DNA of 64,000 bases from Paraburkholderia sp. Its GTDB lineage: Bacteria; Pseudomonadota; Gammaproteobacteria; Burkholderiales; Burkholderiaceae. The position numbers and the translations under genes were made by a program. Position 1 is the first letter of the stretch. The number at the start of each line of letters is the position of its first letter. The stretch spans positions 35,949 to 99,948 of the forward strand of contig SCRN01000009.1 of NCBI GenBank assembly GCA_004322045.1, read 5' to 3'. The notes under the pieces are model-generated. The model ran no database searches, had not been told where the DNA came from, and saw nothing but the letters and a program-made list of their open reading frames with translations. This document shows positions 11,507 to 28,168 of this stretch, in pieces.

Positions 11507-12733
11507 ATGTCTGCCGCCTCGCCCGCCCTATCCGATCGCGCCGCCACGGCTCAAATCGTTCCCGTCGTATTTTTCACCTTCGTCTGCTACCTGATCATCG
11601 GGTTGCCGCTGCCCGTGCTGCCCGGCTTCGTGCAAAGCCAGCTCGGCCTCGGCTCGGTGCTGGCCGGCGCGGCGGTCAGCGTACAGTATGCGGCGACGCT
11701 GTTCTCGCGCGCGCACGCGGGCCGCTTCTCGGACACGCTCGGCCCCAAACGCACGGTCGGGATCGGGCTCCTAGCCTGCGGTGTCAGCGGCGCGTTGCTC
11801 GCCGCAGCCGTCGCCTGCCACGCCTGGCCCGCGGTGAGCCTGTGCGTGTTGGTTGCGAGCCGCCTCGCACTCGGTTTCGGCGAGAGCTGCGTCGGCACGG
11901 GGGCCATCTTGTGGGGCATCGGCCGCGTTGGGGCCACGCACAACGCGCGCGTCATTTCCTGGAACGGCATCGCCACCTATGGCGCGCTGGCGATCGGCGC
12001 CCCCGTGGGCGCAACGCTCGCCCATTCGCTCGGGCCTTGGGCGCTTGGCGCCACGACCATCGCGCTTGCCGCCCTCGGCTATTGGCTCGCGCGCCGGCTC
12101 GATGCCGTGCCGCTCGTTCACGGCGAACGCATGGGCTATGCGAGCGTGTTCGTGCGCGTGCTGCCACACGGCGTCGGCCTGGCGCTCGGCACGGCCGGAT
12201 TCGGTTCCATCGCGACCTTCATCGCGCTGTATTACGCGGCGCGCGGCTGGTCGCATGCTGCGCTGGCGCTCACGCTGTTCGGCAGCTTCTTCGTCGGCGC
12301 GCGGCTGCTGTTCGCCAATGCTATCCGCAGCTACGGCGGCTTTCGCGTCGCGCTTGTCTCGTTCATGTTCGAATGCGCGGGCCTTCTGACGCTCTGGCTC
12401 GCGCCCACGCCGGCCGCCGCGCTCGTGGGCGCGGCCGTGACAGGGTTCGGCTTCGCGCTCGTTTTTCCGTCGCTCGGCGTCGAAGCGGTCGAACTCGTGC
12501 CCCCAGCCAGCCGCGGCGCGGCGCTCGCCGCGTACTCGGTGTTCTTCGATCTATCGCTCGGCATCATGGGGCCGCTAGCGGGCTATGTCGCCGGTGAGTT
12601 CGGCTATCCCTCGGTGTTCTTGGTCGCGGCGATCGCGGCTGCCTCCGCGGCGTTGTTGTCGGTCAGCCTGTACCTGCGCCAGACGCGCAGCCGGCGGCCG
12701 CTCGCGCGGCGTGGGGCGCTCGATGCGGGGTGA
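11507..12733 (+). CDS. MFS transporter
   Basis: 408-aa ORF that is hydrophobic throughout (about 12 segments), with an MFS-type loop [10 protein letters not shown]. Confidence 0.8.
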
Positions 12734-12876: not shown

Positions 12877-13266
12877 TTATTTTTGTGCTGGAGCAACACC
12901 GATTCCATTTGGCGTTAGTCGATTCGTCCTCACCCATCCGACAATCGGCTTCTCGCGCTTATCACTAAGATAAACAACAGACGTAAATTTCCTATATTCC
13001 GTGTAGGCATTTACCGTTTGCCCTTTTATCACGAAAACACCACGCATCACGCAAGAATAATCTGGTGCCGAATAGAACTGCAGACGTCCCTTTCCGATTA
13101 CCGTGCGCCCCGCGTCATCTCGAGGGACAAATATCCCATCTCTTGACGCAAGATCGCTCAGTTTTTGGCAGTCTACTGCGTTGCTCACCCCTTGGCATGC
13201 AAGCAGAGAAAGGGCGACCCCAATTCGAATGTACAGCATCGGCACTGACGCATAACGTCCTGTCAT
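12877..13266 (-). CDS. small lipoprotein, function unknown (candidate orphan immunity protein)
   Basis: 129 aa with a signal peptide and lipobox-like LSLLAC. AT-rich island context. Confidence 0.45.
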   Translation of the reverse strand: MTGRYASVPMLYIRIGVALSLLACQGVSNAVDCQKLSDLASRDGIFVPRDDAGRTVIGKGRLQFYSAPDYSCVMRGVFVIKGQTVNAYTEYRKFTSVVYLSDKREKPIVGWVRTNRLTPNGIGVAPAQK

Positions 13267-13380
13267 TTTATCCTCTCACTGCAAATCGTACCGAGCTAAA
13301 TTGGGTGGCCTTTCTTTGCCACAGGTATTCTCCAGCGCGCCCTTAACCTGATCACCTCATCGCCAGCCACTATCTGGTTC

Positions 13381-14148
13381 TCATGGCCCGTCACCGACAA
13401 CTACAACGGGCTTGCCTTGGGTACGTTCCAACCGCTTGGCCAAATGAATCATTACGATGTATTGTCGAATCCCAATTCCTGCGATCCATTGCGAAACGGG
13501 AAACAGAATCAGAGCACTTAGTAGAATGGGACCGTGCGCGCCAAAAGCAGGAGTCAGAACCCGCCCGATCACGAGTGACAGGGGTGCAATCAACAGCACC
13601 AGGCACATGTGCAGCTTCCCGGAGGGACTGCGGGGACTCAGGACCGCCTCCAGCTTCGCGATATTTTGCAGTCGATACTGCAAGACGCTGCCCATATCCT
13701 CAAATGCGTCGCGCACGAAGCCCGAGGTTGCTAGCGCCTTATTGACATCCCGGGCTGTAAATATCATCCAGTGCCCAGTCGTTACAATACCGAGCGCAAG
13801 CGCCCCGGCATGTACGTATGGAGGCATCGGCGCAAACAAAAAGTAGAAAAAGAAGGGAACGACGCCGCAAAAGAAATAAAACGCCGTTATCATGAACAGA
13901 TTGGCGAGTCCGAGGGCGGCAAGGCGCGATTGCCCGCCATCGATCAAAACGATGATACATGGCCCTAGAACAGCCAGTATCGACATGCCCGTTGCCAGCC
14001 AAAAAGGCAGCAGCGATACATGAAATACCATGCGATAGAAACCATAAGCAATAGCCATCGAAACGACGTTAACGAATAGCGTCAATGGAACCGTCTTCCT
14101 CACCACATCCCTAAGACAATTTTTTGAACGGCTCATGATTGTAGTCAC
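13381..14148 (-). CDS. polytopic membrane protein, divergent third paralog of the putative effector immunity protein
   Basis: 255 aa with multiple TM segments. Shares the aromatic-rich helix (FYFFCGVVPFFFYFLFAP) and tail architecture with ORFs 18369..19172 and 23290..24051, and is preceded by an effector C-terminal remnant. Confidence 0.6.
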   Translation of the reverse strand: MTTIMSRSKNCLRDVVRKTVPLTLFVNVVSMAIAYGFYRMVFHVSLLPFWLATGMSILAVLGPCIIVLIDGGQSRLAALGLANLFMITAFYFFCGVVPFFFYFLFAPMPPYVHAGALALGIVTTGHWMIFTARDVNKALATSGFVRDAFEDMGSVLQYRLQNIAKLEAVLSPRSPSGKLHMCLVLLIAPLSLVIGRVLTPAFGAHGPILLSALILFPVSQWIAGIGIRQYIVMIHLAKRLERTQGKPVVVVGDGP

Positions 14149-14226
14149 GATGGCATGAATATCAAAGGATACGAACTGTACTCTTTCGAGTGATGTTTTT
14201 CGAGAACTTTCGCTGCTTCCCGCAGG

Positions 14227-14440
14227 TCATCCGTTACATCGCTTGGTGATGTGGAATTCATTGTCTGTCATGTTAATCAGATATCCGACCGCCACGGCTG
14301 CGCCGAACACTAGAGCAGCAACTGCCCATACGGGCGCACTGGCAATCAACCCTGCAGCCAGCAACCCTGTGGTTAATGCACCTACCACCGCAGTCGAAGC
14401 CGCAGCGGCAATTCTGGAGGCCGCGAGATCGACGCCAAAT
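14227..14440 (-). pseudogene. C-terminal remnant of the VgrG-linked effector family
   Basis: Manual minus-strand translation gives FGVDLAASRIAAAASTAVVGALTTGLLAAGLIASAPVWAVAALVFGAAVAVGYLINMTDNEFHITKRCNG-stop. This aligns with the glycine-zipper C-terminus of ORFs 24090..25505 and 19162..19938. No start codon is present. Confidence 0.6.
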
Positions 14441-14715
14441 CAGATAGGGCAAAATAGCGACATTCGGTTCCGCAGCTATGGATACCGACATGGCACTTTC
14501 CCGCAAAGCTAATTGCAGACAGGGCCACTTCCTTTCCGATATCATCCCGCCAGATATCTCCGAATTTTACATAATAGTTCGGATTTATCCATCTTCCATT
14601 GCAAATCGATACCGAGTAATCAAAAAAAATACGACCTCTTTCGACTACCAACTGCCACGGACGGAAAGCTACATAGCACGCCGAGAAAGAACACACCAAC
14701 AAATTCGCTTTTCAT
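14441..14715 (-). pseudogene. frameshifted, 3'-truncated paralog of the exported 177-aa protein (20315..20848)
   Basis: The ATG at 14715 opens a signal-peptide frame (MKSEFVGVFFLGVLCSF) that stops after a T8 run (A8 on the plus strand near 14622-14629). The next frame continues NYYVKFGDIWRDDIGKEV...HSCGTECRYFALSDL, matching 20315..20848, and homology ends at the junction with the effector remnant. Confidence 0.55.
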
Positions 14716-14922
14716 GCAGTTCCGTCGACGTTATTCAATCAAATATTCCAAGACATCATCACGAACCGCGGGTTGTTTGCCACCTCAACTTGCGCGGCAA
14801 GAGTTTTCAAATCCGCCCTACTCCATGTAGGGTGTATGGTGGCCGATGAATTTAGTGTCGTCAAATTCCCAGCAAAGCGATTGCTCCGTCGAAATCGAAA
14901 ATCCTCCGCGCCGCAATTACGC

Positions 14923-15501
14923 CTACTTGGGCCTATTTTCTTGGCACGCAATGAAGAAGATCTCTACGGTTGTCAGCATCACCCTATTTTTTCGTTTTAT
15001 AAAGATCAAAGCCATATTCTGTAGCTGCTGAGACATCACACACCGCGCACCTACCGCTCTGAACTCGACGTCTAGCACGCATTCATTCTTAGGAAAATGC
15101 GTCGACGTGTGTCCATTGTCGACGGACGGCTCCACGCCCTTTAGTTGTCCCTTGATATATGAGAAAATTGGATGATCGAATCCTGTCATATTTTCGAAGA
15201 GAACTTTATGATCTCCCAAAACGCTCATCAGCCAATCTATTTTTTCGGCTGCAGTCCTCCCAGCGCGCTGAAGTGCAACACCATCGACAACGTTCGTTTG
15301 CAACTCGAATCTAGACGGGTCGGCATAATTATTGAATGCAATCTTATCTGGAAATGAAGCAAAAAACCTCTGCTTGATCTCTGAAACACCACTAGCCGAC
15401 GAACAATCAGACACAAGAATAGCATATGCGTTGGCGTATCCGAAAATAGCAGCGGCGCTCAAGGCGAGTGATAGGATTTTATATAGCTTAGCGCGTGCCA
15501 T
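14923..15501 (-). CDS. exported protein, function unknown (candidate orphan immunity protein)
   Basis: 192 aa with an N-terminal signal peptide (LSLALSAAAIFGYANA). AT-rich island context. The C-terminal end is uncertain. Confidence 0.4.
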   Translation of the reverse strand: MARAKLYKILSLALSAAAIFGYANAYAILVSDCSSASGVSEIKQRFFASFPDKIAFNNYADPSRFELQTNVVDGVALQRAGRTAAEKIDWLMSVLGDHKVLFENMTGFDHPIFSYIKGQLKGVEPSVDNGHTSTHFPKNECVLDVEFRAVGARCVMSQQLQNMALIFIKRKNRVMLTTVEIFFIACQENRPK

Positions 15502-15777
15502 GCCCTTTCAGATCCTTAATTTGATGAGCCTTGTTCTAGTCGATTGCCGATGCTTCCTGTAGCGAGGCCCCTTTGGCGATCTCCTGTTGCGCGAAGGGCA
15601 AGTACGTCTTAGGCACGTAATAGCAATGTATCTCCGACGGCTTGAACTCCGCAAAATCGATCGTCTGTCCAGCGACAATTACTTTTGCCGGTGGCGACAA
15701 CTAGATTTGCCGGTTTCCGACGGCTGACCTGTTGAGGTTGCGGCCGTCGCTATCATGCGGCTCCTTCCGGAGCCGAC

Positions 15778-17262
15778 ATGAAAAAAGACGGAGAAATCAA
15801 ATTGTTGCGGGAAGAACGGCGGAAAGGAGCGAGCCAGAAGCTGGCGGCTGCGCGAACGGGTATGAGTGAGCGCACGGTCCGTAAGTACGAGCGCGCGGGT
15901 ACGTTGCCCAGTCAGATGAGGAAACCGCGCACGCATCGCACGCGGGAGAATCCGTTTAGCCTCGATTGGCCGTGGGTCGAGGAACATCTCAAGCGAGACG
16001 CGGCACTGCAGGCCAAGACCCTGTTCGCGCTGCTGTGCCAGGCGTTTCCGGGGCGATATCAGGAAGGCCAGCTGCGCACGTTGCAGCGGCACATTCAAGC
16101 GTGGCGAGTTCGTCACGGCCCGGAACAGGAAGTCATGTTTCCACAGGAGCATGTGCCCGGGCGCATGGCTCAATCCGATTTCACTTCGATGAATAGCCTG
16201 AGAGTAACGATCTCGGGTACGGCATTCCCGCACCTGGTCTATCACCTGGTGCTGACTTACTCGAATGTGGAGGCCATACGCATTTGCTTCTCGGAGAGCT
16301 TCGAGGCACTGGCAGAAGGGCTTGAAGCGTGCCTGTGGCAGATCGGCGGTGTTCCCGAATGGCACCGCACCGACAACCTGACTGCGGCCGTACGCGACCT
16401 CGATCGTGAAGGAATGCATGAGTTCACGCAGAACTATCAAGCATTGCTCGCCCATTACGGCATGCAGCCGTCGGCGAACACGGCCGGATGCGCTAACCAA
16501 AACGGTGACGTCGAGCAATCGCACTTCCGCTTCAAAGAGGCCGTGGATCAGGCGCTGCGGGTTCGCGGCACGCGAGACTTCGGAACGCGTAGCGACTACG
16601 AGCACTTCCTTTGCGAACTTGTTCGACAGCGCAATCTTACGCGCACGCAACGATTCGAGGCGGACCGAGCGGCGCTTAGGCCGCTGCCCGCGGCACCGTT
16701 GGACTTCACACGTGAGGTCTCGGTGCGCGTCTCTCGCTTCAGTTTGGTTCGGGTGCTCAACAATCACTACTCCGTGCCGTCGCGATTGATCGGTGCGACG
16801 CTGAAAGCACGCATCCGCTCGGAGCGCTTGGATCTTTACCATGGGGCGGCGCACGTTCTTACTCTGCCGCGTTTGACCGGCCGCAATCAGCGACGAATCG
16901 ACTATCGGCACCTAATCTGGTCGCTGGTTAGAAAGCCCGGGGCGTTCGCGGCCTACTGCTACAGAGACGAGCTGTTTCCGACGACCGCGTTCCGCCGGGC
17001 CTACGACGCATTGCTTGCCGCAACGCCGACGAAGGCGGACCGAGAATACCTACGCCTGTTGCATTTAGCCGCGAGCACATCCGAGGCGGAAATCGATGAA
17101 GCAATCGGCCGGGTGTTGCATGACGAGCGCGTACCGACGCTCGATGTTGTGCGCGAACTCGTCGCAAGCCCGACGCCGACAGCGGTACCGAAGATCGGCA
17201 AGGCCGCCATCAACTTGCGCGACTACGACGCCCTGATTCCGTCACGGAGTAACCATGCATAA
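15778..17262 (+). CDS. istA: IS21-family transposase IstA
   Basis: 494 aa with an N-terminal HTH and an integrase-core region typical of IstA. Overlaps the downstream istB. Confidence 0.9.
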   Translation: MKKDGEIKLLREERRKGASQKLAAARTGMSERTVRKYERAGTLPSQMRKPRTHRTRENPFSLDWPWVEEHLKRDAALQAKTLFALLCQAFPGRYQEGQLRTLQRHIQAWRVRHGPEQEVMFPQEHVPGRMAQSDFTSMNSLRVTISGTAFPHLVYHLVLTYSNVEAIRICFSESFEALAEGLEACLWQIGGVPEWHRTDNLTAAVRDLDREGMHEFTQNYQALLAHYGMQPSANTAGCANQNGDVEQSHFRFKEAVDQALRVRGTRDFGTRSDYEHFLCELVRQRNLTRTQRFEADRAALRPLPAAPLDFTREVSVRVSRFSLVRVLNNHYSVPSRLIGATLKARIRSERLDLYHGAAHVLTLPRLTGRNQRRIDYRHLIWSLVRKPGAFAAYCYRDELFPTTAFRRAYDALLAATPTKADREYLRLLHLAASTSEAEIDEAIGRVLHDERVPTLDVVRELVASPTPTAVPKIGKAAINLRDYDALIPSRSNHA

Positions 17263-18028
17263 CGCCCGTGATGAATTGCTGGTGTCGCTTCGTGCGCTCA
17301 ACCTCGGTGCCATGGCGGCCGCTGTGGAAGACACGGCACTACGAGCGGCAAAGGAAGGGCTGACCCATGAGGCGTTCCTTCTCGAACTGGCTCGTATCGA
17401 ACGCGCAGCGAAGGCGTCGCGCCGAATCGAACGGCTACTGAGGCAATCCGAACTGCTGCCCGAGAAGAACTTCCGGTCCCTAAAGCTGGAAAGATTCGAT
17501 CCAGCCACCCGCATGCAAATTGAGCGGCTGCGCAGCGGCAGCTTCCTCAAGGATGCCACCAATGTGGTCGCGGTCGGCCGACCTGGTGCGGGGAAAAGCC
17601 ATCTTGCCTGCGCATTGGGGCACGCGCTCGTCGAGCAAGGGTACCCGGTCCTGTTCACACCCACGGGGGCTTTGGTGCAACGGCTACTGGCAGCAAAGCG
17701 CGATCTGCGTTTGCCGCAGGAGCTGGCGAAGCTGGACCGCTTCGAGTGCCTCATTCTGGACGACATCGGCTACGTCCAGCATGACCGAGACGAAATGGAA
17801 GTGCTGTTCACGTTGCTCGCCGAGCGCTACGAGCGCAAGAGCATCGTCATCACGACGAACCTCGTGTTCTCCGAGTGGGAGCGCATCTTTAAGGACCCGA
17901 TGACCACGCTCGCGGCCATTGACCGCGTCGTCCATCACAGCGTCGTTCTCGATCTGATGAGTGTTGAAAGCTATCGGGCTAAAGCTGCCGGCGCCAAGCC
18001 GACGGCATCAGCCCCGGTGGCAGCATAG
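17255..18028 (+). CDS. istB: IS21-family helper ATPase IstB
   Basis: 257 aa with Walker A GRPGAGKSH and Walker B LILDDIGY, in DnaA/IstB-like AAA+ organisation. Confidence 0.9.
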   Translation: MHNARDELLVSLRALNLGAMAAAVEDTALRAAKEGLTHEAFLLELARIERAAKASRRIERLLRQSELLPEKNFRSLKLERFDPATRMQIERLRSGSFLKDATNVVAVGRPGAGKSHLACALGHALVEQGYPVLFTPTGALVQRLLAAKRDLRLPQELAKLDRFECLILDDIGYVQHDRDEMEVLFTLLAERYERKSIVITTNLVFSEWERIFKDPMTTLAAIDRVVHHSVVLDLMSVESYRAKAAGAKPTASAPVAA

Positions 18029-18368
18029 GGCGGCAATTTTAGTTGTCGTTGTCGTCGGCGGCGGTTGTAGTTGACGCCAGACAGATCGTCCCTCCGAAGG
18101 ACCCGCCACCGCCCTGGTTCCCACCCAATACCACAATGTTTTTTTGTTTTTTGGATTAACGCCGCACACGAACATAACGTGGTCCGATGAACAATTTCGC
18201 GCATTTTTCAATTTGGCTCAGACTTTCAATCTTCCCGACATGACGCTGCACCCCGGGCTCACCGACCTAGGCCTCGCAGTCGAATGAATGAGAACTAGGG
18301 GCGAATATCGCGACTAGCAATCGCGAGTCATCCATATTCACTTCGGCGAACCCTAACGGTCGCGCTCG

Positions 18369-19172
18369 TCATGCCATCGCGACAACGCGCTTATGTTTCT
18401 CCCTTTCGATTCTCACCGGAAGGGCCACCATCACAAAATATATGCGTACGAATAGGCTTGCAAGCCACAATGATACGGGCATACCCAGCGCAGCAGCGAA
18501 CACCAAGACCCCATCACCACCAAGACTGGAGGACAGAATTCTATTCATCACCAGACCGAAAGGCGCGATACCATACACAATATACATAAGCGCCCTTGGA
18601 AAGGGGGATTTTTGCTGACACAACACATCAAACGTCCGCATGCCGTCTTTCAAACGATAAACTATATTATCTTCGCTTTCGACGAACATTTTATTCACGA
18701 ACGACGTCGCCGCGATCGTCTGCTGCACGCTTCGGTATGCGCCCCAAACCCACCAGACCGAAAGCGCTCCACCACACACCAAGCCCATCCACCTGAAATA
18801 TGCGCTTATCGATGAAAATATAAAAAAATAGAAGTATGCAAATACACCAAAGAAATAGTAGATTGCAGAAACACTAATTGACAAAATGAGCCCACAAGCC
18901 AACAACGCATTGCTTCCACGGTATCTCACATAAACAAAGAAAAGCGAGAAGCAGCAAACAGCAGCTACCGCAAGGCCGATCTGCCATGATAATCCAGATG
19001 CCCCTTGCACGTCGGCATAAGCGAGATATGAAATTCCTGAGCCAAGAAGCGGAAACATCAAGCATACAGGAATTGCTTTTTTCACCATATCCGAAATCTG
19101 ATCCGTATTAAATCCCAATGCTGTGTGCACAACTCCCCCAGGCAAGCTTACCGAATTTAGGTTAATCCGCAA
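18369..19172 (-). CDS. polytopic membrane protein, second paralog of the putative effector immunity protein
   Basis: 267 aa. Aligns along its length with 23290..24051 (YYFFGVFAYFYFFIF, PFPRALMYIVYGIAPFGLVMNR, GMPVSLWLASLFVRIYFVMVALPVRIEREKHKRVV). Its start overlaps the stop of the upstream effector fragment. Confidence 0.65.
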   Translation of the reverse strand: MRINLNSVSLPGGVVHTALGFNTDQISDMVKKAIPVCLMFPLLGSGISYLAYADVQGASGLSWQIGLAVAAVCCFSLFFVYVRYRGSNALLACGLILSISVSAIYYFFGVFAYFYFFIFSSISAYFRWMGLVCGGALSVWWVWGAYRSVQQTIAATSFVNKMFVESEDNIVYRLKDGMRTFDVLCQQKSPFPRALMYIVYGIAPFGLVMNRILSSSLGGDGVLVFAAALGMPVSLWLASLFVRIYFVMVALPVRIEREKHKRVVAMA

Positions 19173-19938
19173 ACATTAGCGAATACGATTCGTAGTCTTT
19201 TTTCGCAGCTTTCTGCAAATATTCTGCCGAATGCTTCAACGATTCACCAATCGCTCTAACAAAAGCAATCCCGTGGGCGGTACCATCGACCTTCTTATCA
19301 AGCAAATCAATACCGTAACCTACAAGAGCTGCAACAACGAGTGTGCCAATTACGATAGCCGATACCGGCACCATGATTGACCCCGCCAATAGCGCAACCG
19401 CCTCTCCGACAACAGCTGACGCGATCGCTGCACTTATGCCCGCCTTTAGAAAATCAATTCCGAGCTTCCCTAGCAAATCGGCAAAATCTTTGCTCCGCTT
19501 CCCATCGGGTCCTATCTGTTCGTAATCGTGCAGCCACTCCGCCGCGTCGAGGGTCATAGTAAATATCAATGCGATTAACCCGGCCTTCTTTGCCACACCT
19601 CTGATTCCCTCCCACGCCGCGGCCGTACCCGACTCGACGCTACCGGCCCCACCGGCAATTGTCAGCACTTTTTGGTGCTTAACGCGATAGCGGGCGGCCG
19701 TTATCAATCTACGCGATCGCGGATTCCCTGTGAATACGACATACCAGCGCTCGCCAGCATTCTTGTGGACTATCTTCATCAAACGGAATCGTTCAGACCA
19801 CAGTTCTTTAATCCACGCCTTGTTGTCGTTGAGGAATGCTGCCGTACCCGCAAGCTGCCCGAGCAAGCAGTTTCGAGTTGCAATCTTGTTCGCATCAATC
19901 GCTGTCTCAACCTTGCTCCCGGCGGCAACCTGATCCAA
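19162..19938 (-). CDS. orphan 5'-truncated copy of the VgrG-linked effector (C-terminal module only)
   Basis: The 258-aa ORF aligns with residues about 215-471 of ORF 24090..25505. In an 89-residue stretch (ETAID...IAGGAG) I count 14 differences. Homology continues upstream of the ATG to about 19975, where an IS5-like fragment begins. Confidence 0.65.
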   Translation of the reverse strand: MDQVAAGSKVETAIDANKIATRNCLLGQLAGTAAFLNDNKAWIKELWSERFRLMKIVHKNAGERWYVVFTGNPRSRRLITAARYRVKHQKVLTIAGGAGSVESGTAAAWEGIRGVAKKAGLIALIFTMTLDAAEWLHDYEQIGPDGKRSKDFADLLGKLGIDFLKAGISAAIASAVVGEAVALLAGSIMVPVSAIVIGTLVVAALVGYGIDLLDKKVDGTAHGIAFVRAIGESLKHSAEYLQKAAKKDYESYSLMFAD

Positions 19939-19979
19939 GATTTCCTGAGGAATCGACTGTCTGTCAACCTCTACAATGT

Positions 19980-20174
19980 TGGCGTGTTGCGGGCTACGCC
20001 ATCAGCCAGCGCAAGCGCAAATGCATCGAGCAGGTGTTTGGCTGGGGCAAGACGATTGGCTGGATTCGGCAGGTCATGTGTCGCGGGCGCGAGCGAGTCG
20101 AACAATCGTTCCTGCTGACGCGGGCGGCCTACAACCGCACGCGCATGCGAACGCTCACAGCTAAAACGGCATAG
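19980..20174 (+). mobile_element. IS4/IS5-superfamily (DDE) transposase C-terminal remnant
   Basis: Translation ...AISQRKRKCIEQVFGWGKTIGWIRQVMCRGRERVEQSFLLTRAAYNRTRMRTL matches the conserved C-terminus of IS5-type DDE transposases. No N-terminal or catalytic part is present. Confidence 0.6.
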
Positions 20175-20314
20175 AGGCGAAAGTTGGCGAGGAAACGACA
20201 TCGAATCGGCCCGAATTAAGGAAATCCAGCATCAAATCGACACCCTCAAAATCGGCGTAGCGCCTCTTGGAAAAGCTATCGTCTCGCCATGAGGGAGGAT
20301 ACTTCAACAGTCTG

Positions 20315-20848
20315 CTAATGACTGTCGCACCCGCTTGTCGTTGCCGTGATAGGCTTGATCACGTCGTCATTCCGACTAAACAGAAATACGCGTTCGCGGC
20401 ATTCGGCTGAACGATCACCAGATGCGTCGATATGATACTGCGCCACTATCATCGCGCTAGTCGGACGAGTCACCAAGTCCGTTACATATGAACGGCCATC
20501 TTTCGTTCTAGTAGGCTTTTCACCGTCCGATGAAAACATATCCAGAGCTTTTGAATCACTCCCAGTGGGTAAATCAGATAATGTATAGTAACGACATTCG
20601 GTTCCACAACTGTGAAGGCCGACATGGTACTTCCCCGAAAAGTTAATTGTAGGTGGAGCCACCTCCTTCCCCATATCGTCCCGCCACGTATCTCCGGATT
20701 TTACGTAATACGACAGAATTAATGGTCTCCCGGTATAGGGCATCGCCGGATAATCTGAGAATTTTGGCTTTTGATGATTATCCTCTGCCAAGGCCGAAAA
20801 ACTAAATAGCACTCCGACAAAGAATATACAAATAAATCCTCTTTTCAT
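20315..20848 (-). CDS. exported protein, function unknown (candidate orphan immunity protein)
   Basis: 177 aa with signal peptide MKRGFICIFFVGVLFSFSALA. Conserved block YYVKSGDTWRDDMGKEV...HSCGTECRYYTLSDL is shared with the pseudogene at 14441..14715. Confidence 0.5.
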   Translation of the reverse strand: MKRGFICIFFVGVLFSFSALAEDNHQKPKFSDYPAMPYTGRPLILSYYVKSGDTWRDDMGKEVAPPTINFSGKYHVGLHSCGTECRYYTLSDLPTGSDSKALDMFSSDGEKPTRTKDGRSYVTDLVTRPTSAMIVAQYHIDASGDRSAECRERVFLFSRNDDVIKPITATTSGCDSH

Positions 20849-20989
20849 TGAAATATCTCCGCATCGTCCTAGCTCCGGCGAGATTCACACAATCATCTGA
20901 TGCGAGCCGTCATAACTAACTCAGATCGTGACGCTGCAGTAGCGCACCGCATCTCGTCACTGTTAGTGTGACTCGAGCCTCAATCCTTG

Positions 20990-21640
20990 TCATTGTTGCT
21001 TAGCCACCACATTGAACAAGGCCTCACATCCATCCTCTCTGGTAATATTTTTCCCTAAGTCCAAATCCCATACGCCAGGGTAAGCGCCTACCCTGCAATC
21101 CATCGAACCATCCGCGCTAACGTACCGGCCGTTCGGTGATATGCGACCCGGAGTCGATTCGAGATAGCCGAAAGCCTCCTCCTTCACTTTTTCGTCCCCC
21201 ATTTTTTCACTAAAAACCCCGGGGGCGCTTAAGATCGAACGGGTCTGCCCTAACTTTGCGACCGTTGCTGTAAATGCCATAGGTGAGACACTAACAAGAT
21301 CGAGCGCTAGATAGATCTTGCGCTTCGGATTAACATCAACGACAAACCCGACTTTGCGTGGAATATGCGATGGCTCAACACTACCGCCAGAGCAAGTGCG
21401 AACATCGCTCACATTCACGAAATCCACATCCGTCAAAATAATGACATTCTTATCCCAATTAAGTCGTGGCGCAACGTGCGTCAGCCGCTTAGCCAGTGAA
21501 CATCGCTTAACACCGACAGGTGCACCGTTAATCACGATCGCATTCGCCGATGCATCGAATCTAACAAAATCGACATCGTCGGCGAAGACATGAAATGCAA
21601 CAAACCACAAAGATACGCAGATATATTTCCCGATATTCAA
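20990..21640 (-). CDS. exported protein, putative periplasmic immunity protein for the adjacent GH19-like muramidase
   Basis: 216 aa with signal peptide MNIGKYICVSLWFVAFHVFA. Its start overlaps the stop of the upstream hydrolase gene by 4 nt. Confidence 0.5.
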   Translation of the reverse strand: MNIGKYICVSLWFVAFHVFADDVDFVRFDASANAIVINGAPVGVKRCSLAKRLTHVAPRLNWDKNVIILTDVDFVNVSDVRTCSGGSVEPSHIPRKVGFVVDVNPKRKIYLALDLVSVSPMAFTATVAKLGQTRSILSAPGVFSEKMGDEKVKEEAFGYLESTPGRISPNGRYVSADGSMDCRVGAYPGVWDLDLGKNITREDGCEALFNVVAKQQ

Positions 21641-22488
21641 TTTAGCACCTTTAGAGCATTCATCGTGGCGAGATATCTTCCGTCTTTTTCTATGTAGCCG
21701 CCATTAATAATATGGGTCACCGCCTCGGATATCTTTTTCTCGAGCTCCCTTTCTTCGTCCGTCGAAGGAACAATGCCACGACTCGTATCAATTTCTCGCT
21801 TCACGTCGTCATTTTTGATGGCAACAAAAAATCCTCCGCTATCGATGCAGTTGTAGGGGTCTCGAATGACCCTATCTGGTTCAGCGATCAAAGCTGGTCG
21901 CTTCTTCATCGTTGCAGCATTATGCTGCTTGTATGCGTGATCCAACCACCAACCGTCATCAAAGTCTTTGGTCTTTAACCATCCTCGGTACACCCAGTAT
22001 GCTGCGTAATTCGCACGCCCCGTCAGCTGTTTGAATCCTCGCCCTCTAAATTCCTGCGCATCGGCATCACCGACATTACCGTTTATCCAACTATACGATC
22101 CGGTTATTCTATGACCCTTGCTGTTAAATTTTTCAGAACTATAGTAGCCATCGAATTCTTCATCCTTCTTTCTATACCAATGCCCGAGCGCCGCCTCCGA
22201 CTCCACAGACGCCGGATTTATCCGATTATTAAGCATACTGGCTTCCTGCATATTTTGCAGACTACCTGACTCGATAGCCCCCTGACCGAGGAAGTGGGCC
22301 TGTCTTACAGCATCAATAAAGACGTATTTTTGCATTACTTTATTTAAGGCCACGCGATATTTTTCCCGAATACCCTCCGGCGTTCTCGAATAAATTCTTG
22401 ATAACGTCGACTTATCGATCCAACGACAAGAACTCATCCAGTCGATGAACTCGATCGGGTGAAAGTGCCAGAGTGTGGCTGGAAGTAG
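21637..22488 (-). pseudogene. 5'-truncated glycoside hydrolase family 19-like (lysozyme/chitinase-like) putative T6SS effector
   Basis: GH19-type motifs AHFLGQGAIESG (catalytic Glu context), FRGRGFKQLTGRANY and THIINGG, preceded by WHFHPIEFIDW. The track ORF continues to 22923, but that part is antisense to a transposase fragment. Confidence 0.6.
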
Positions 22489-22983
22489 CAAATGCGCATC
22501 AGCCCACCATTGAACCGCGAAGCGACGACGTTGCAGCAGGCCACCGAACTCATTGACTGGTACCGCGCGCGCTGGGAAATCGAGATTCTGTTCAATGTGT
22601 TGAAGAACGGATGCCGCGTCGAGGCCTTGCAGTTGGGCACGATCGAACGACTCGAACGCGCTCTGGCGTTGTTCCTGGTAGTGGCTTGGCGTATCGCTTA
22701 TCTGATGCGCATGGGCCGCAGCTGCCCGGCTCTGGACGCCGAACTGTTCTTCGATGTCGACGAGATCCGCGGCGCATACTTGCTCACCGAGGCCAAGCAG
22801 CCCGCCAAGCCCAAGCTCAATGAGGTGCTTCGCCTGATCGCACAATTGGGTGGCTTCCTGGGCCGCAAAGGAGATGGCGAACCCGGCGCGAAGGCCATCT
22901 GGCTTGGACTCAGAGAAGTTCATGTTGCGGCTAAGACTTTACGAGCATTACGTGGCCGCGGTAACGCCGACACTTCTGTATAA
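22489..22983 (+). mobile_element. IS4-family (Tn5/IS50-like) transposase C-terminal remnant
   Basis: Carries WYRARWEIEILFNVLKNGCRVEALQL and the C-terminal GGFLGRKGDGEPGAKAIWLGL motif characteristic of IS4/Tn5-type transposases. An in-frame stop lies just upstream at 22486-22488 and the N-terminal two-thirds are absent. Confidence 0.7.
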
Positions 22984-23289
22984 GCCGATGCCTTTTAGGG
23001 GCGGCACCACAAGATCTCGCAACTCTTGATTGCAGGCTGCCGACAAAGCCGTATGCCCTGCTTCGGAGAAAAATAGGAGCGAAATCGGGAGTAGTATCGT
23101 TTTGGAGAGTTTCATTTTTTGGCTCACAACATCGGTGGAACGAGTTGACAATACGAATTCGGTTCCATCCCGCCTTTATCGCACCACCTATACCCACCCG
23201 TATTGTGGGCCACCTCGAAATCTGGCCACTCACAGTGGTTATGCCGTTGGACGCTTTTTTTGGTTTCCCGTCCCGCAAACCACTTTGCG

Positions 23290-24051
23290 CTACTCGACCA
23301 CCACAACCCGCCTATGCCGCTCTCTTTCAATCTTCAGTGGCAGCACAATCATTACGAGACAGATTCGCACGAGCAAACCTGCGAACCACAGCGACACAGG
23401 CATTCCGAGAATTGCTAAAAACAGCAGCACACCTGTTTGGCCAAAATTCTCCGAAAAAAGTCTATTCAGTATCAAATAGAAAGGAGCAATTCCGTAGACC
23501 ACATACAAATAGATTTTCGGAAATGGCAGACGCTCCTTATTTAACCGCTCAAACGCCCGCATTCCGGTCTGGATTCGATAGGATATTACATCACCATCAT
23601 CAATAAACGCCGTTTCCACAAAAGACGTGCTTCGAATAGTGTGCCGAACACCGCGGCCTATCATAATCATCCAATATACCGTCAACGTCACTCCGCCAAA
23701 AAATCCAAGCCAACTTACTAAATGAGGCATTGGCGCGAACATGAAATAATAGAAATATGAAAATACACCAAAGAAATAGTAAACCGCAAATATACCAATT
23801 GCAGCAATAGCTCCACAGGCCCATAACGCGTTTGTTTGGCGAGCCTTGGTATAAATAATGAATGGAGCCAACAAACATGCCAATGTTACAAACAAGCCGA
23901 TCCTCCATGGCCATGCAGATGCTGCGAGGTCATCCGCGTACGCAGCATACGAGAGTCCGGCAGCGAGCCCCGGCAACAGTAAGCTCATCGAGGTAACTTT
24001 TTTCGCCGCGTTAAGAACAGCATCGGGCGGAAGCTTTGCGATTGATCCCAA
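23290..24051 (-). CDS. polytopic membrane protein, putative cognate immunity protein of the VgrG-linked effector
   Basis: 253 aa with about 6 hydrophobic segments and the aromatic-rich helix YYFFGVFSYFYYFMF. Begins 38 nt downstream of the effector, and two paralogs occur in the same island. Confidence 0.6.
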   Translation of the reverse strand: MGSIAKLPPDAVLNAAKKVTSMSLLLPGLAAGLSYAAYADDLAASAWPWRIGLFVTLACLLAPFIIYTKARQTNALWACGAIAAIGIFAVYYFFGVFSYFYYFMFAPMPHLVSWLGFFGGVTLTVYWMIMIGRGVRHTIRSTSFVETAFIDDGDVISYRIQTGMRAFERLNKERLPFPKIYLYVVYGIAPFYLILNRLFSENFGQTGVLLFLAILGMPVSLWFAGLLVRICLVMIVLPLKIERERHRRVVVVE

Positions 24052-24089
24052 GGGTATCGTCCAATTTCAATATGAGTTTATCTGACCTT

Positions 24090-25505
24090 TCACGGCATAT
24101 ACATTAGCGAGTACGCTTCATAATCCTTTGGCATTGATTTTTCTAGATATTCTGCCGAGGTCTTTAATTTCTCACCGACGGCACGAAACCATCCAATTAC
24201 ATGACCGGTTGCACCAGTCTCTTTATCGACCCAGTCGAGTCCGTAGCCCACGCCGATCGCAACTATTATTGTACCTACGACAATACCCACAACTGGCAAT
24301 GAAACACCGATCAGAATCGTCGCTCCCGCGACAATCGCGCCGACTAGCACTGATGCGATTACCGCGCTTAGACCCGCCTTTGCGAGATCGATGCCGATTT
24401 TTCCGAGCAAGTCTGCGAAATCCTTCTTAGGTTTTCCGTCTGGGCCTAATTCCTCGTAATCATGGAGCCATTCGGCCGTGTCTACCGAAACTGTAAAAAT
24501 TAGCGCAATGCTCCCCGCCTTCTTGAATGCCCCCTTAAGCCCTTCCAACGCGGCAGCTGCTCCCGATTTTACCGTCCCAGCACCACCCGCGATCGTCAAA
24601 ACCTTTTCATGCTTTACACCGTATCTCGCAGCCGTAATTAGGTTACGCAATCGTGGGTTTCCCGTAAACACAACGTACCATCGCTCGCCTGCTCTTTTAT
24701 GGACAATCTTCATCAACCTGAATCGTTCCGACCACAGCTCAGCAATCCATTTCCTATTGTCGCTGAGAAACGCCACCGAGCCCGCTAGCTGCCCGATCAG
24801 CCAGTTACGTGTCGCGATCTTGTTTGTGTCGATCGCTGTCTCATCTGCGCCACCTGCTGCAACCTGATCCAGCACCTCCTGAGGAATCGATCGCTTGTCA
24901 ACCTCCATGACGTGCGCCTCTTGTGGGGCTTCGATGGTCGTATCGGACGCCAGGTTGATAGGTAGGGGAAACCAGTGATGTGGTTGAAGTACCGCGGGAT
25001 CCGTTCTCCCCGGCGCGGGCGAATAACCCGATAAGGCAGGGGAGTCCGTGGCCCTCAACGCACTCGCCACCATCGTTTGAGGTCCGGCCGCGGTCGGGAA
25101 CGGGCCCGCAGGATTGAAGCCCATTGCGATGATGATGGGAGCAGGCTTGACCTTTGGGTCGGGACTGCTGCCTGTTGCCCCAAACTGGAGCATAGAATAG
25201 CGCTGCAGCAGCTTGCCGTTTTGCTTCAAAAGTAAGTAGCCTTTAAAATCTCGACTAATCCAAATGTGGAATAGCTGTCCGTCTGAGAACTGGCCTTGTT
25301 TGACGCGCTTCTTTTTAGCGACGTCGTAAATCCAATCGTCCGTTGCTTCAATGGTGTAGGTAGCACCCTTTTTCAGGTCAATATCAAAAATCACGTCGCG
25401 ATGCTTACGAAGAAGGACAGTAACGTCGGTTTCCGCCCAACACTCGACTGGCTCTCCGGGCAGATCGATGCATACTTGATGCCCCATCATGGCGCGGCCG
25501 CTCAT
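24090..25505 (-). CDS. putative T6SS effector of uncharacterised family, with a predicted membrane-inserting C-terminal domain
   Basis: 471 aa. Its ATG overlaps the vgrG stop (TAATG). It has a Pro/Ala-rich linker and a C-terminal Gly/Ala/Val/Ile-rich stretch, GLSAVIASVLVGAIVAGATILIGVSLPVVGIVVGTIIVAIGVGYG. I recognise no enzymatic motif. Confidence 0.6.
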   Translation of the reverse strand: MSGRAMMGHQVCIDLPGEPVECWAETDVTVLLRKHRDVIFDIDLKKGATYTIEATDDWIYDVAKKKRVKQGQFSDGQLFHIWISRDFKGYLLLKQNGKLLQRYSMLQFGATGSSPDPKVKPAPIIIAMGFNPAGPFPTAAGPQTMVASALRATDSPALSGYSPAPGRTDPAVLQPHHWFPLPINLASDTTIEAPQEAHVMEVDKRSIPQEVLDQVAAGGADETAIDTNKIATRNWLIGQLAGSVAFLSDNRKWIAELWSERFRLMKIVHKRAGERWYVVFTGNPRLRNLITAARYGVKHEKVLTIAGGAGTVKSGAAAALEGLKGAFKKAGSIALIFTVSVDTAEWLHDYEELGPDGKPKKDFADLLGKIGIDLAKAGLSAVIASVLVGAIVAGATILIGVSLPVVGIVVGTIIVAIGVGYGLDWVDKETGATGHVIGWFRAVGEKLKTSAEYLEKSMPKDYEAYSLMYMP

Positions 25506-28168
25506 TATTGTTCTCCAATCCGTTTGACCTGGTGTGCAACAAAACGCCCGAAGTCGACGTTCTTCAATTCTCCAATTCCTTTGTCATCAAGCGTGACATG
25601 ATGGGTCGCTCCATCTTCCGATACTAGCTTGATTGGTTCGCCTTCTGGTACGTTACCGTCCGCGTCGACGTAACGGACGCGCAAATTCGCCTTCTTCCCT
25701 TCTGACTTGTACCGTTCATAGAGACTCGTCGGCCCCGCAAACACCCGCTTCGCCCCCTTCACGTCGACCGTCCCCGGCGCGTGGATCTCGATGTTGCCGT
25801 CCTTGATGCGGACATAGGCGCCGCCCGATGTCAGCAGAATCTCGCGCTTGCCCGCCATCTCGATGACATCGGTGATCGAGATTACCTTCACGCCTTTATG
25901 CGCCGTCAGTTCGATCCCATCGGAATGCGCCTGCACCTCGACCTTGCCCTTCGCCGCAAACAGCTTCATCCCCGCGTTCTGCACGAACAGGCTCAGCTTC
26001 TCGCCAATCGAAGCGATCAACGATTTGCCGCTCGCGATATGCGTACTCGCACCGCTAACGATGTTCACATGCTTGTCCGCGGCGATCTGCGTCGATTGCT
26101 GTGTCGATAGCGCGATCCCCGATGGGCTCGCCATCAGCATGATCGGCTCCGCGAAGCCATTGGCGTTACCGGTGCCGCCGCCCGCCGTGCGCCCCGCCCC
26201 CGACGCATCACCCGCCACGCTCCTTTGCGTCGCATCGGTGAAAGCCTTCAGCGAGTCGTAGCCGTCTTTCAAGCTTTCCGCTTGATGCGTCGCACTCGCG
26301 TCCGATAGGGCTTCGATCACACTCTCAGCGTTTACGAGCTGACTGCTCGCTTGCCGCACATCCATCGGTTGCTGGACCGACGCCGGGTGACTCGACACAT
26401 ACAGCCCTTGCTCGGCGCGAATCGCACCATACGCGTTCGACTTCAAATCGAAGCCGCTGCCCAGATATCCGCCACGCGTATTGCCGGTGTGATCGACCAA
26501 GTACCCAAGATGAAGGTGCGAATCGGCACTCGTCGAATACAGGTGAACGCGGTTCTGCCCCGTCGAGTCATCCATGACGAGTTGATTAAAACCACTCCCG
26601 CCGTATTCCTTGGACCGATACCCCGAGAGCAATCCATTCGTGTGCCACACCGGTGGCGTCGGCCCACCGTGCATGCGGCCCAAAATCACAGGTCGATCGC
26701 AATCGCCGCCCATGAAACCCACGATCACTTCATCGCCTTTGCGCAGCGGGAAATGTCCCCCTCGCTTCGAGCCCGCATCGGGAAACGAAGCCCGCACCCA
26801 GACCGATGCACGCTCATCGCCCTCATTGCGGCGATTCCAGGGAAACAGCACCTTCACGCGATTGAGCGCATCGGTGTAAATCTCCTCGCTATCCGGCCCC
26901 GCGATGATCGCAGTCTGCAGTTCCATCACTGGCTTGCGGTGCTCGAGCGGGCTACGGAACGGCGTGCGCCGCCGTTGCGCTTCGATCTCGACTTGGAAGT
27001 ACCCCTCGCTGCCGTCGGCATGCCGAACTTTGACACCGCCCGCATTCGCCCGCGCCGCCGCCAATACATCCGACTGCAAGCTTTCCGCGAAGTCCGCCAC
27101 CTCATCCATGCCGGGCAAGTTGTTGCGGATCGTCCACGTCGTCTCGATGATCGCGAACTCGCGATCATCCGGACGCTCTTTATCGTGGACAGGATGCCCC
27201 TCCAATACGAACCAATACCCGGGCATGGCCGAACGCAGGCTGCCAATGCCATGAAACCGCTTCATCTGCGATTCCCATGCTTCGACGCGCACGGCATTTC
27301 GATGCTCGCCGCTATCGCGCACGCCCCACGAATACGCCCCGGTGTAGTCGTACACCTCGCCCTGTGCCGGAATATCGTCGCGCGGGCTGATCGCGCTGCG
27401 GACCTCCTTAGGCAAATCCGGCCGCTTGTAATCGAACGTGCGCGTCGTCAGCTTCGCGCTCTGAATCTGTTGCTGCTCTTTCCATTGCGTGAAGCCTTCC
27501 ACCTCTTCACGTAAGCCCGTGCGGACGAAGCGCACCGTCTTCTGCTCGAGCTGCGGCACGAAATACACATCGTCCATCAGCACGAGCGTGTGCGACTTGC
27601 CATCCTCCGCCTGCTCGAAGCGGCCGAACACCCCCACTTCCTCCAAGCTGCGATGCACGAAGTTCCAATCGTCGTCCCATTGCACCCGGTTCGAATACCG
27701 AGGCATTGCCTGCCGCAAATCGAACCGATAAGCGCCCTGCGCTTGCGGATGCTCGTCGAACACGTCGGCCACGATCTGCTCGCCCGTCTGCTCCTGCCAA
27801 TCGCGCATATCGCGACGCAACGGCAAAAAGCACATCCACGAGGAAAATCGCAATTGGTAAAACGTGAGATATCCGTCGCTGCCTAATCGGGAAAACGTTT
27901 TCACATAGCCGTGATGCGGCAGATACGAGCCATCCGCTTGCTGCAACCACAGCGTCACCGGCTGCGCAATCAACGCCTTCAACTCAATTCGATCGCCGTG
28001 CGACGAAGCGACATCGACAACGAACTCGTAATCGCGCCCAAGCCGCGATGTGCCCTTTGCCTGCAGCGGCACGAGCCAATCGTCCCCCAGAGGCGTCTCG
28101 AGCTTAATTAAACGATTGTGTTGCGCATTCCCATAGAAAAGCGCGTCGAAAAGCGCACCGAACGCCAT
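25505..28168 (-). CDS. vgrG: type VI secretion system spike protein VgrG
   Basis: 887 aa. N-terminus NRLIKLETPLGDDWL...GRDYEFVVDV and gp27/gp5-like regions (FPLRKGDEVIVGFMGGDCDRPVILG) are followed by a DUF2345-like repeat region and a roughly 90-aa C-terminal extension. Confidence 0.92.
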   Translation of the reverse strand: MAFGALFDALFYGNAQHNRLIKLETPLGDDWLVPLQAKGTSRLGRDYEFVVDVASSHGDRIELKALIAQPVTLWLQQADGSYLPHHGYVKTFSRLGSDGYLTFYQLRFSSWMCFLPLRRDMRDWQEQTGEQIVADVFDEHPQAQGAYRFDLRQAMPRYSNRVQWDDDWNFVHRSLEEVGVFGRFEQAEDGKSHTLVLMDDVYFVPQLEQKTVRFVRTGLREEVEGFTQWKEQQQIQSAKLTTRTFDYKRPDLPKEVRSAISPRDDIPAQGEVYDYTGAYSWGVRDSGEHRNAVRVEAWESQMKRFHGIGSLRSAMPGYWFVLEGHPVHDKERPDDREFAIIETTWTIRNNLPGMDEVADFAESLQSDVLAAARANAGGVKVRHADGSEGYFQVEIEAQRRRTPFRSPLEHRKPVMELQTAIIAGPDSEEIYTDALNRVKVLFPWNRRNEGDERASVWVRASFPDAGSKRGGHFPLRKGDEVIVGFMGGDCDRPVILGRMHGGPTPPVWHTNGLLSGYRSKEYGGSGFNQLVMDDSTGQNRVHLYSTSADSHLHLGYLVDHTGNTRGGYLGSGFDLKSNAYGAIRAEQGLYVSSHPASVQQPMDVRQASSQLVNAESVIEALSDASATHQAESLKDGYDSLKAFTDATQRSVAGDASGAGRTAGGGTGNANGFAEPIMLMASPSGIALSTQQSTQIAADKHVNIVSGASTHIASGKSLIASIGEKLSLFVQNAGMKLFAAKGKVEVQAHSDGIELTAHKGVKVISITDVIEMAGKREILLTSGGAYVRIKDGNIEIHAPGTVDVKGAKRVFAGPTSLYERYKSEGKKANLRVRYVDADGNVPEGEPIKLVSEDGATHHVTLDDKGIGELKNVDFGRFVAHQVKRIGEQ

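Follow-up and report, generated by a model that had tools for sequence, protein, structure and literature searches.

A vgrG-headed island of Paraburkholderia sp. carrying one intact and two progressively truncated copies of a putative effector–immunity module

The DNA considered here, referred to throughout as the window, is a stretch of 64,000 nucleotides (nt) from Paraburkholderia sp. (GenBank assembly GCA_004322045.1, contig SCRN01000009.1, positions 35,949 to 99,948 of the forward strand; coordinates given below for the window count from its own first letter). It contains an island of ~16 kb (~13000–29000) headed by the gene for VgrG, the spike protein of a type VI secretion system (T6SS; 25505–28168, minus strand, 887 amino acids (aa)), behind which lie three copies of an effector–immunity module in increasingly decayed states. 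The copy next to vgrG consists of an intact effector gene, E1 (24090–25505, minus strand, 471 aa), and a cognate immunity candidate, I1 (23290–24051, minus strand, 253 aa), which is predicted to be a six-helix inner-membrane protein; further away are a truncated effector copy, E2 (19162–19993, minus strand), with an intact orphan immunity gene, I2 (18369–19172, minus strand), and finally the remnant of a third effector, E3 (~14148–14442, minus strand), with another intact orphan immunity gene, I3 (13381–14148, minus strand, 255 aa). We regard it as probable that vgrG–E1–I1 is an active unit, that the other two modules are older ones displaced through the arrival of horizontally acquired cassettes, and that the immunity genes retained with them are protective. 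The G+C content of the island is 0.48–0.55, as against 0.64–0.66 in its flanks and ~65% for the genome, and every gene in it lies on the minus strand except for an insertion sequence (IS) element, which is on the plus strand. Among the window's long open reading frames (ORFs) there are no visible T6SS core genes, and the locus is therefore an auxiliary vgrG island.

The assignment of the spike gene is straightforward, the protein matching Phage_GPD (E-value 3.9e-82), DUF2345 (4.9e-54) and T6SS_Vgr (6.8e-31) in Pfam and TIGR03361 (2.4e-92) in NCBIfam. Its stop codon overlaps the start of E1 by 1 nt, and E1 itself has no signal peptide. From an AlphaFold2 (AF2) model and an alignment of the family, E1 can be divided into a conserved N-terminal beta-sandwich domain of ~120 residues (~8–130), for which the predicted local distance difference test score (pLDDT) exceeds 85, a disordered and hypervariable linker (residues 130–195), and a helical C-domain (195–471), for which pLDDT is only 60–75. 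Towards the end of the C-domain, between residues 370 and 415, the hydropathy profile reveals an amphipathic helix together with a strongly hydrophobic one, so that the domain ends in a hydrophobic hairpin that is rich in Gly and Ala.

The initial annotation of this stretch, made from the letters alone, had described the effector copies as a series running from intact through 5'-truncated to a short remnant, and this order is correct, although the limits and the reading frame of the last member had to be redrawn. The ORF of E2 is 69% identical to E1 over 259 aa (E-value 4e-120). In a further pairwise comparison the two match with an E-value of 3e-115, which, like the values for the immunity proteins given below, is far beyond chance. 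How much of the effector is missing is best judged against L066, a metagenomic contig carrying the 3' part of vgrG, a full-length 470-aa effector (P0014) and its I (L numbers are used here for loci outside the window). Nucleotide homology to this full-length allele starts at 19993, i.e. at residue ~194 of 470, and E2 thus covers residues ~194–470 (277 codons), with both the N-terminal domain and the true start codon missing; what remains open is a frame of 258 codons from a TTG at 19938 (19162–19938), with stops upstream in frame. An indication from tblastn that the homology might reach back as far as E1 residue 126 was rejected, given where the L066 alignment starts and that the intervening frame contains stops. 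The E3 remnant corresponds to the last ~95 codons, residues ~381–475 of E3-type effectors, which comprise the hydrophobic hairpin and the tail, and it is interrupted by one frameshift near 14240; the segment 14227–14440 (~70 codons) that had originally been taken for the whole remnant is the first frame segment of it. The remnant is not picked up by tblastn with E1, being found instead with effectors of the matching subclass, namely those of L031, L048, L067 and L012, with which it shares 52–67% identity (67% for L031 and L048, 60% for L067) at E-values of ~1e-22.

The three membrane proteins are, as had been proposed, paralogs. They align over their full length, I1 being 46% identical to I2 and 31% identical to I3, and a tblastn search of the window finds these pairs with E-values of 9.7e-75 and 1.7e-33 respectively. 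The motifs that had been listed as common to all of them, PFP...YGIAPF and IERE(K/R)H(K/R)RVV, are indeed present in I1 and I2, but in I3 there are just loose counterparts (PSG...LLIAPL and LERTQGKPVV). Each immunity gene lies immediately downstream of an effector copy, with a 38-nt gap between E1 and I1, a 31-nt gap or an overlap between E2 and I2, and a GTGA overlap between E3 and I3; to judge from the L066 homologue, the true start of I2 is probably the GTG at 19130, giving a protein of 253 aa. The AF2 model of I1 has six long helices, modelled as transmembrane, with a pLDDT of 81 and a predicted template-modelling score of 0.79, and a Foldseek search of the PDB with this model returned no match. 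As regards sequence families, borderline matches to DUF6803 are all that Pfam gives for the I family, and then for 8 of 28 members, while DUF1240 is found in none of the 28 even at E-values up to 1. I1 is 100% identical to EPN57_03370 of the NCBI metagenome-assembled genome (MAG) Paraburkholderia sp.

Both displaced modules have counterparts elsewhere. Module 2 as a whole shows 79.6% nucleotide identity to L066 over 1614 nt; at the protein level E2 is 86% identical to the L066 effector, as compared with 69–70% to E1, and I2 is 74% identical to the L066 immunity protein, as compared with 46% to I1. For I3, which is 31% identical to I1, the corresponding figures are 75% to the immunity proteins of L031 and L048, 68% to that of L067 and 96% to that of L068. 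The initial annotation had proposed a survey of related genomes for alternative alleles at the vgrG-proximal position, and these exist: the E2 type occupies it in L066 and the E3 type in L031, L048, L067 and L012. In these last four loci the E3/I3 type is the resident pair and is followed by an orphan of I1 type, 56–59% identical to I1, which is the reverse of the order seen in the window.

A comparison with L068, which is the same island end in a close relative, is informative as to the relative age of the pieces. The transporter gene at the border of the island (major facilitator superfamily, MFS) is 98% identical there at the amino-acid level and the DNA from 14398 to 11000 is 93.8% identical; within this region L068 carries an E3 remnant without the frameshift, as well as I3. 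At 14398 the identity between the window and L068 jumps from 72–74% to ~94%, a step which indicates that the distal module is old and common to this relative, and that the sequence upstream of it has been exchanged. In L068 the E3 remnant is adjoined (719–1291) by an intact member of the family of small genes represented in the window at 20315–20848, directly upstream of E2, and the two are 86% identical.

The arrangement of vgrG, E and I in that order is by no means peculiar to this window. A scan of one genome per species yielded 65 loci with the E family, and in 56 of these a vgrG lies directly before E (the criterion being that a VgrG is detectable by tblastn with that of the window and ends no more than 400 nt upstream of E); to these may be added L011, where Pfam identifies a different, shorter VgrG. 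A homologue of I follows E in 36 of the 65 loci, and in 15 there are extra orphan I genes, making two or three I copies in all. Across the 36 E–I pairs, the identity of the E C-domain is strongly correlated with that of the adjacent I (r = 0.915; 0 of 999 permutations in a Mantel test), while for the E N-domain the correlation with I is looser (r = 0.78), and co-variation of this kind between the C-domain and I is how a toxin domain and the immunity protein paired with it would be expected to behave. The immunity protein shows faster divergence than the toxin C-domain in each of the pairs that were compared, L001 being one example (77% identity for the E C-domain, 52% for I). Together with the counterparts just described, this synteny and co-variation support the earlier interpretation of the locus as an orphan toxin–immunity array behind vgrG.

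Several of these loci also bear marks of recombination. The L012 effector is a mosaic, its N-domain being 73–90% identical to E1 and its last 95 residues only 17–33% (sliding-window identities), and the most variable part of E is exactly the piece that is kept as the E3 remnant. The opposite mosaic occurs in L011 (8053–11434), where the N-domain is ~40–48% and the C-domain 70–90% identical to E1; here the effector follows a VgrG of 647 aa without DUF2345, a pattern that suggests that the N-domain matches the type of VgrG. In 23 loci, as in the window, there is a gradient of G+C content, falling from 0.64 in the flank to 0.62 in the 5' part of vgrG, 0.58 in its 3' part, 0.55 in E and 0.52 in I. 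In L012, L049 and L036, orphan I genes have short remnants of the E tail (28, 74 and 31 aa respectively) in front of them. Finally, between vgrG and E in L067 there is a chimeric ORF of 70 aa (499–711) in which E residues 1–20 are combined with the last 50 residues of VgrG, joined at a common 'PGEP/DGNVP..EP' microhomology, and this looks like a recombination scar at the point of cassette entry.

A scheme along the following lines would account for the array. In the active unit vgrG–E1–I1, E1 would be a toxin carried on the spike and secreted in a T6SS-dependent manner, and would be neutralised by I1 in the inner membrane; the N-terminal beta-sandwich probably docks the toxin on the VgrG tip, while the probable point of attack of the C-domain, with its amphipathic and hydrophobic hairpin, is the target cell's inner membrane. 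Newly acquired cassettes, each comprising the 3' part of vgrG together with E and I, would push older E–I modules distally, entering at one end by means of homology in the conserved region of vgrG and the 5' end of E, and at the other end through an illegitimate junction within the resident E gene. At each such event the resident toxin would lose its delivery domain and its start codon while the immunity gene would be kept, and I2 and I3 would now most likely protect against toxins of E2 and E3 type fired by neighbouring Burkholderiaceae. Such a process may be called sequential displacement, or homology-facilitated illegitimate recombination, and a sequential-displacement model has been proposed for Vibrio cholerae (PMC5361080).

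It must be said that a number of points weigh against this reconstruction. In the first place, the array is a composite island, with further putative effector and immunity genes and an IS, rather than a clean E–I tandem: the modules do not adjoin one another but have another effector-like gene, several genes for secreted proteins and an IS21 element between them, and both orphan effectors are preceded by a member of the 20315 family, something that a model in which one cassette arrives at a time does not predict. The incoming pieces were probably larger composite segments and not single E–I pairs. Secondly, a scan of the island for promoters and terminators gave counts at or below the shuffled expectation, with 10 promoter-like sites as against 11.4 expected by chance, so that expression of I2 and I3 has to be presumed. 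Thirdly, the ratios of non-synonymous to synonymous substitution rates (dN/dS), which are 0.18 for I2 (against L066) and 0.28 for I3 (against L068), integrate over the time that each gene spent as part of a cognate pair, and the value for I3 rests on few substitutions. For the effectors the ratio is 0.08 for E2 (against the full-length allele of L066), which mostly reflects its past as a complete gene, and 0.44 for the E3 remnant, where 70 codons are too few for the figure to be interpreted. Lastly, to call the E C-domain 'pore-forming' would be an analogy, as the low pLDDT of this domain and the lack of any structural or profile match should make clear.

Some of these same points could be turned into a case that the distal modules are simply neutral wreckage, i.e. 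functionless leftovers in the course of decay, in which I2 and I3 are still intact for lack of time. Insertion of IS21 into the array, the pseudogene at 14424–14715 and the frameshift in E3 would all be in keeping with such a history, as would a promoter signal no higher than chance and, for I3, a ratio that is statistically weak. We nevertheless consider it unlikely. In both orphan modules truncation or a frameshift has struck the toxin, whereas the immunity ORF beside it keeps its full length, and this asymmetry recurs in 15 other loci, where orphan I genes stand with no E remnant or a minimal one; a contrast of this kind, repeated so widely, argues for retention of immunity more strongly than dN/dS does. 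The value of 0.18 for I2 points in the same direction, and so does the fact that L068 still has I3 at 96% identity even though the sequence upstream of 14398 is a replacement in that locus.

A more improbable alternative, in our estimation, is that truncated E2 is still in use, whether, after the manner of Rhs and CDI orphans, as a silent reservoir from which the C-domain of E1 could be replaced by recombination or as an independently translated product. Its frame runs uninterrupted for 258 codons over the whole C-domain, the immunity gene next to it is intact, and the dN/dS of 0.08 would at first sight suggest that the sequence is being maintained, but, as noted above, most of that signal will have been accumulated while the gene was full-length. 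As to translation, there is no ATG or GTG start, and the first codon of start type, the TTG at 19938, corresponds to an internal Leu of the full-length protein with stops upstream of it, while the N-terminal domain possessed by all full-length members is absent. As to recombination, the initial annotation had pointed out that in the Rhs, CDI and Vibrio arrays which this one mirrors displaced C-terminal modules can be re-recruited, but E1 and E2 have a nucleotide identity of 66–71% (70.7% over 559 nt in the best blastn segment) and the longest exact match between them is 14 nt. RecA-dependent exchange normally needs far longer identity than this. Re-recruitment of the displaced E2 C-terminal part by homologous recombination thus seems unlikely here because the exact identity is so short.

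Local tandem duplication followed by divergence, which would make the three E–I modules paralogues produced within this one genome, has a still smaller claim to be right. That the modules share the same order and orientation is of course just what duplication would give, and the presence of one family of small genes in front of both orphans could be taken to reflect a larger duplicated unit. However, I2, I3 and E2 each resemble alleles of other genomes far more than they resemble their neighbours in the window, which points to acquired cassettes and not to local duplication; the same allele classes occur in the opposite order in other genomes, and synonymous divergence (dS) between E1 and E2 is saturated. 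Duplication in situ was rejected on the pairwise identities, and simple local duplication, which had been named in the initial annotation as the finding that would overturn its proposal, can be set aside.

The preferred reading of displaced modules with protective immunity genes presupposes that E is a toxin, and what can be said on this point comes largely from exclusion and from comparison. There are 145 homologues of E1 (counted as clusters at 90% identity), in Paraburkholderia, Burkholderia, Trinickia, Caballeronia, Massilia and relatives; the annotation reads 'hypothetical' for all members that carry a name, and none has a Pfam domain. E1 itself gives zero matches to Pfam and NCBIfam at E-values up to 0.1; a profile search of the PDB produced a chance match only (E-value 0.61), and Foldseek found nothing in the PDB with an E-value below 0.07 for the AF2 model. 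An exhaustive profile search of 1.84 billion representatives gave 532 matches, among which the E C-domain also occurs behind other N-terminal regions; in 20 such proteins Pfam recognises one LysM domain and zero toxin or trafficking domains. Those distant members of the E family that were inspected still end in a similar hydrophobic hairpin. The effector family had been called unassigned, and this description holds, for I as well as for E, as regards Pfam, NCBIfam and the PDB. For the Burkholderia cenocepacia homologue P0097, looking up its cluster produced just the name 'hypothetical protein'.

Even so, the absence of a signal peptide, the overlap with vgrG, the hydrophobic hairpin and the six-transmembrane-helix model of I together lead us to infer that E is a toxin acting on the cytoplasmic membrane, where I would block it. 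The N-domain is the obvious candidate for docking on VgrG, since there is no adaptor gene at the locus, the orphan copies have lost precisely this domain, and the divergent N-domain of L011 is found together with a VgrG of another class, the C-domain there being still 70% identical. One might instead suppose that E and I are not toxin and antitoxin at all, I being a membrane accessory for the export of E, or E a structural tip or adaptor protein, as the want of any recognisable toxin domain and the uniformly 'hypothetical' family members might allow, but this is the least probable of the readings considered and verges on the implausible, given that an export accessory would not persist as orphan copies without its partner, that E lacks the known adaptor domains DUF4123, DUF1795 and DUF2169 (no Pfam match), and that co-variation of the E C-domain with I, a hypervariable E tail and multi-copy I arrays are hallmarks of arms races between toxins and immunity proteins. 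Going further, E and I could represent an undescribed class of T6SS toxins, carried by VgrG, independent of adaptors, directed at membranes and largely found in Burkholderiales, in which a dedicated N-terminal beta-sandwich of ~120 residues fits the effector to its type of VgrG, the final ~95 residues (hydrophobic hairpin and tail) form the hypervariable determinant that a six-helix immunity protein reads, and immunity-only copies accumulating in Paraburkholderia serve both as a record of, and as a defence against, alleles circulating in soil; we put this forward tentatively, as a suggestion that stands slightly short of an even chance.

Some observations on other members of the E family may be added. 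In Burkholderia multivorans the 90% cluster of P0029, a full-length effector, also holds proteins of 172–179 aa, on up to 11 contigs, which could be effector copies that have repeatedly been truncated (orphaned) in this species. In Massilia some E-family genes are disrupted: in L060 (9959–11644) a transposase gene follows directly after the N-domain ORF, and in L063 (9941–10961) and L062 (9959–10546) the E ORF is interrupted, apparently by frameshifts. The idea that the E N-domain might be fused to unrelated toxins in L060–L064 was rejected where these loci were read, the E genes of L060 and L063 being disrupted ones. In L019, L020, L028 and L029, which are from Limnobacter and related MAGs, E has no detectable VgrG immediately upstream and no detectable I downstream; in L019 the genes upstream of E encode a jacalin-domain protein and a secretin.

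Turning to the remaining genes of the island, its distal border is formed by the MFS transporter gene (11507–12733), with xanthine-dehydrogenase-type genes, and the border on the other side by an SBP56 gene (28673–30082). Three genes, all on the minus strand, separate I1 from E2. The first is the effector-like gene at 21637–22923 (428 aa), whose product contains a 'GRGFKQLTGRANY' motif and gives weak sequence matches in the PDB to GH19-type phage endolysins over residues 275–311 (best E-value 3.7e-4), with no Pfam match and no signal peptide; its first 140 residues are met with again in L067, where they are encoded on the opposite strand. The second (20990–21640, 216 aa) overlaps with its start the stop of the first and has what appears by eye to be a hydrophobic leader at its N-terminus, although a hydropathy scan with a 19-residue window found no segment above threshold, and Pfam and NCBIfam gave no match. 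On this evidence the first is probably a second cargo effector, a putative cell-wall hydrolase, with the second as its candidate periplasmic immunity protein. The third (20315–20848, 177 aa) is the secreted-protein gene that gives its name to the 20315 family, a Paraburkholderia/Trinickia family of which 67 homologues were found, all hypothetical; the protein has a signal-like N-terminus.

Between I2 and the E3 remnant there are two small genes and the IS21-family element (15695–18048, plus strand), which consists of istA (15778–17262) and istB (17255–18028) and is identified by its Pfam matches to IstB_IS21 (E-value 3.6e-57) and Mu-transpos_C_2; it is bounded by 18-nt terminal inverted repeats (15695–15712 and 18031–18048) and its G+C content, ~0.61, is above that of the island. 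At 14923–15501 (minus strand) there is a gene for a 192-aa secreted protein with a signal-like N-terminus, a candidate orphan immunity gene, homologues of which, 46–68% identical, adjoin orphan I genes in L067 and L068. Next to it on the same strand is the 20315-family pseudogene (14424–14715), frameshifted, cut at about residue 97 and fused to the E3 remnant; tblastn aligns its residues 30–97 at 60% identity (E-value 1.6e-23) and blastn gives 71% over 282 nt (14437–14715), the start region included. Beyond I3, at the distal end of the island, is a further gene for a secreted protein (12877–13266, minus strand, 129 aa), again with a signal-like N-terminus and again an immunity candidate; a 91% identical homologue is found in the same position in L068, and one of 55% identity follows the orphan I in L067.

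The phenomenon itself is well known, and current understanding of how such arrays arise is unchanged by the present case; the novelty lies in a family of effectors and immunity proteins that is uncharacterised and in a series of decay stages that is unusually complete. Which strains can coexist under contact-dependent killing is thought to be decided by orphan immunity arrays, and these have been analysed mainly in Vibrio, in Bacteroidales, in Rhs and contact-dependent inhibition (CDI) loci and in Ralstonia, to which a well-resolved case from a soil Paraburkholderia can now be added. An intact toxin, a copy minus its delivery domain only and a tail-only remnant together make up a natural series for experiments, and, given the full-length counterparts found elsewhere, it becomes possible to test how specific the immunity is, what the N-domain contributes to loading on VgrG and how the toxin acts.

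Among known systems, the displaced modules of Rhs and CDI (CdiA) loci, as described by Jackson et al. (2009) and Koskiniemi et al. (2014) in the account given of them in PMC5361080, resemble the present array in having a constant 5' delivery part and a variable 3' toxin part, and in the occurrence of displaced 3' fragments that lack a start codon and are each accompanied by their own immunity gene, the more distal copies being the more decayed. The re-recruitment that has been demonstrated for Rhs orphans would need stretches that are near-identical between resident and orphan, and there are none here, the identity being too low. Unlike those systems, too, E has no Rhs/YD repeats, no PAAR domain, no filamentous haemagglutinin region of CdiA type and no demarcation motif of the VENN or PxxxxDPxGL type (no Pfam or NCBIfam match), and what varies in it is a single toxin fold that has diverged, not a set of toxin domains unrelated to one another.

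As regards toxin type, the closest parallels are the membrane-depolarising effectors of Tme/Tmi (PMC7046647), VasX/TsiV2, Tke5/Tki5 (of the BTH_I2691 family, PMC13133200) and Tse4 (PA2774 of P. aeruginosa, the type of the glycine-zipper toxins), all of which have a C-terminal toxin part with a hydrophobic helix and, directly downstream, an immunity gene whose product has 3–6 transmembrane helices and a highly diverse sequence. E1 matches neither NCBIfam NF041559 (BTH_I2691) nor Pfam VasX_N/MIX, and at 471 aa it is much smaller than members of the BTH_I2691/VasX/Tke5 family (~1000 aa; PMC13133200); E belongs neither to that family nor to any other in Pfam or NCBIfam, and I is likewise not DUF1240. 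A search of the Tme paper's supplements (PMC7046647), whose files are possibly incomplete, for the accessions of five E homologues came up empty. Spiewak et al. (2019; PMC6612558) list B. cenocepacia BCAL2504, with tssI BCAL2503 and immunity gene BCAL2505, as a 'Tse4 homologue', and as the order is the same vgrG–E–I one, BCAL2504 may belong to the E family, though this should be regarded as a lead rather than a result.

Nearer in taxonomic terms are the vgrG-linked clusters of Ralstonia and other Burkholderiaceae (PMC11481896), which belong to the same bacterial family and, as here, are auxiliary vgrG clusters away from the core T6SS; no Ralstonia locus is among the 65 of our scan. Of the 25 auxiliary types in Ralstonia, 13 are reported to have immunity arrays or orphan immunity genes, and decay through IS elements or frameshifts hits toxins more often than immunity genes in those clusters (PMC11481896), just as it does in the window.

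A further close comparison is with the T6SS arrays of V. cholerae (Kirchberger et al. 2017, PMC5361080). The differences are that the host here is a member of the Burkholderiaceae, that the effector and immunity families are other ones and there is no adaptor gene, that one orphan keeps its entire C-domain of 277 codons, and that unrelated candidates for effector and immunity genes, as well as an IS21 element, are interspersed in the array. In its essentials, however, the pattern is the same: a cluster headed by vgrG has arrays of additional immunity genes at its 3' end, every orphan is similar to the immunity gene cognate to an effector that other strains carry, the origin proposed is that an acquired E–I module replaces the old effector while its immunity gene is kept, and the mosaic arrays that result then move between strains.

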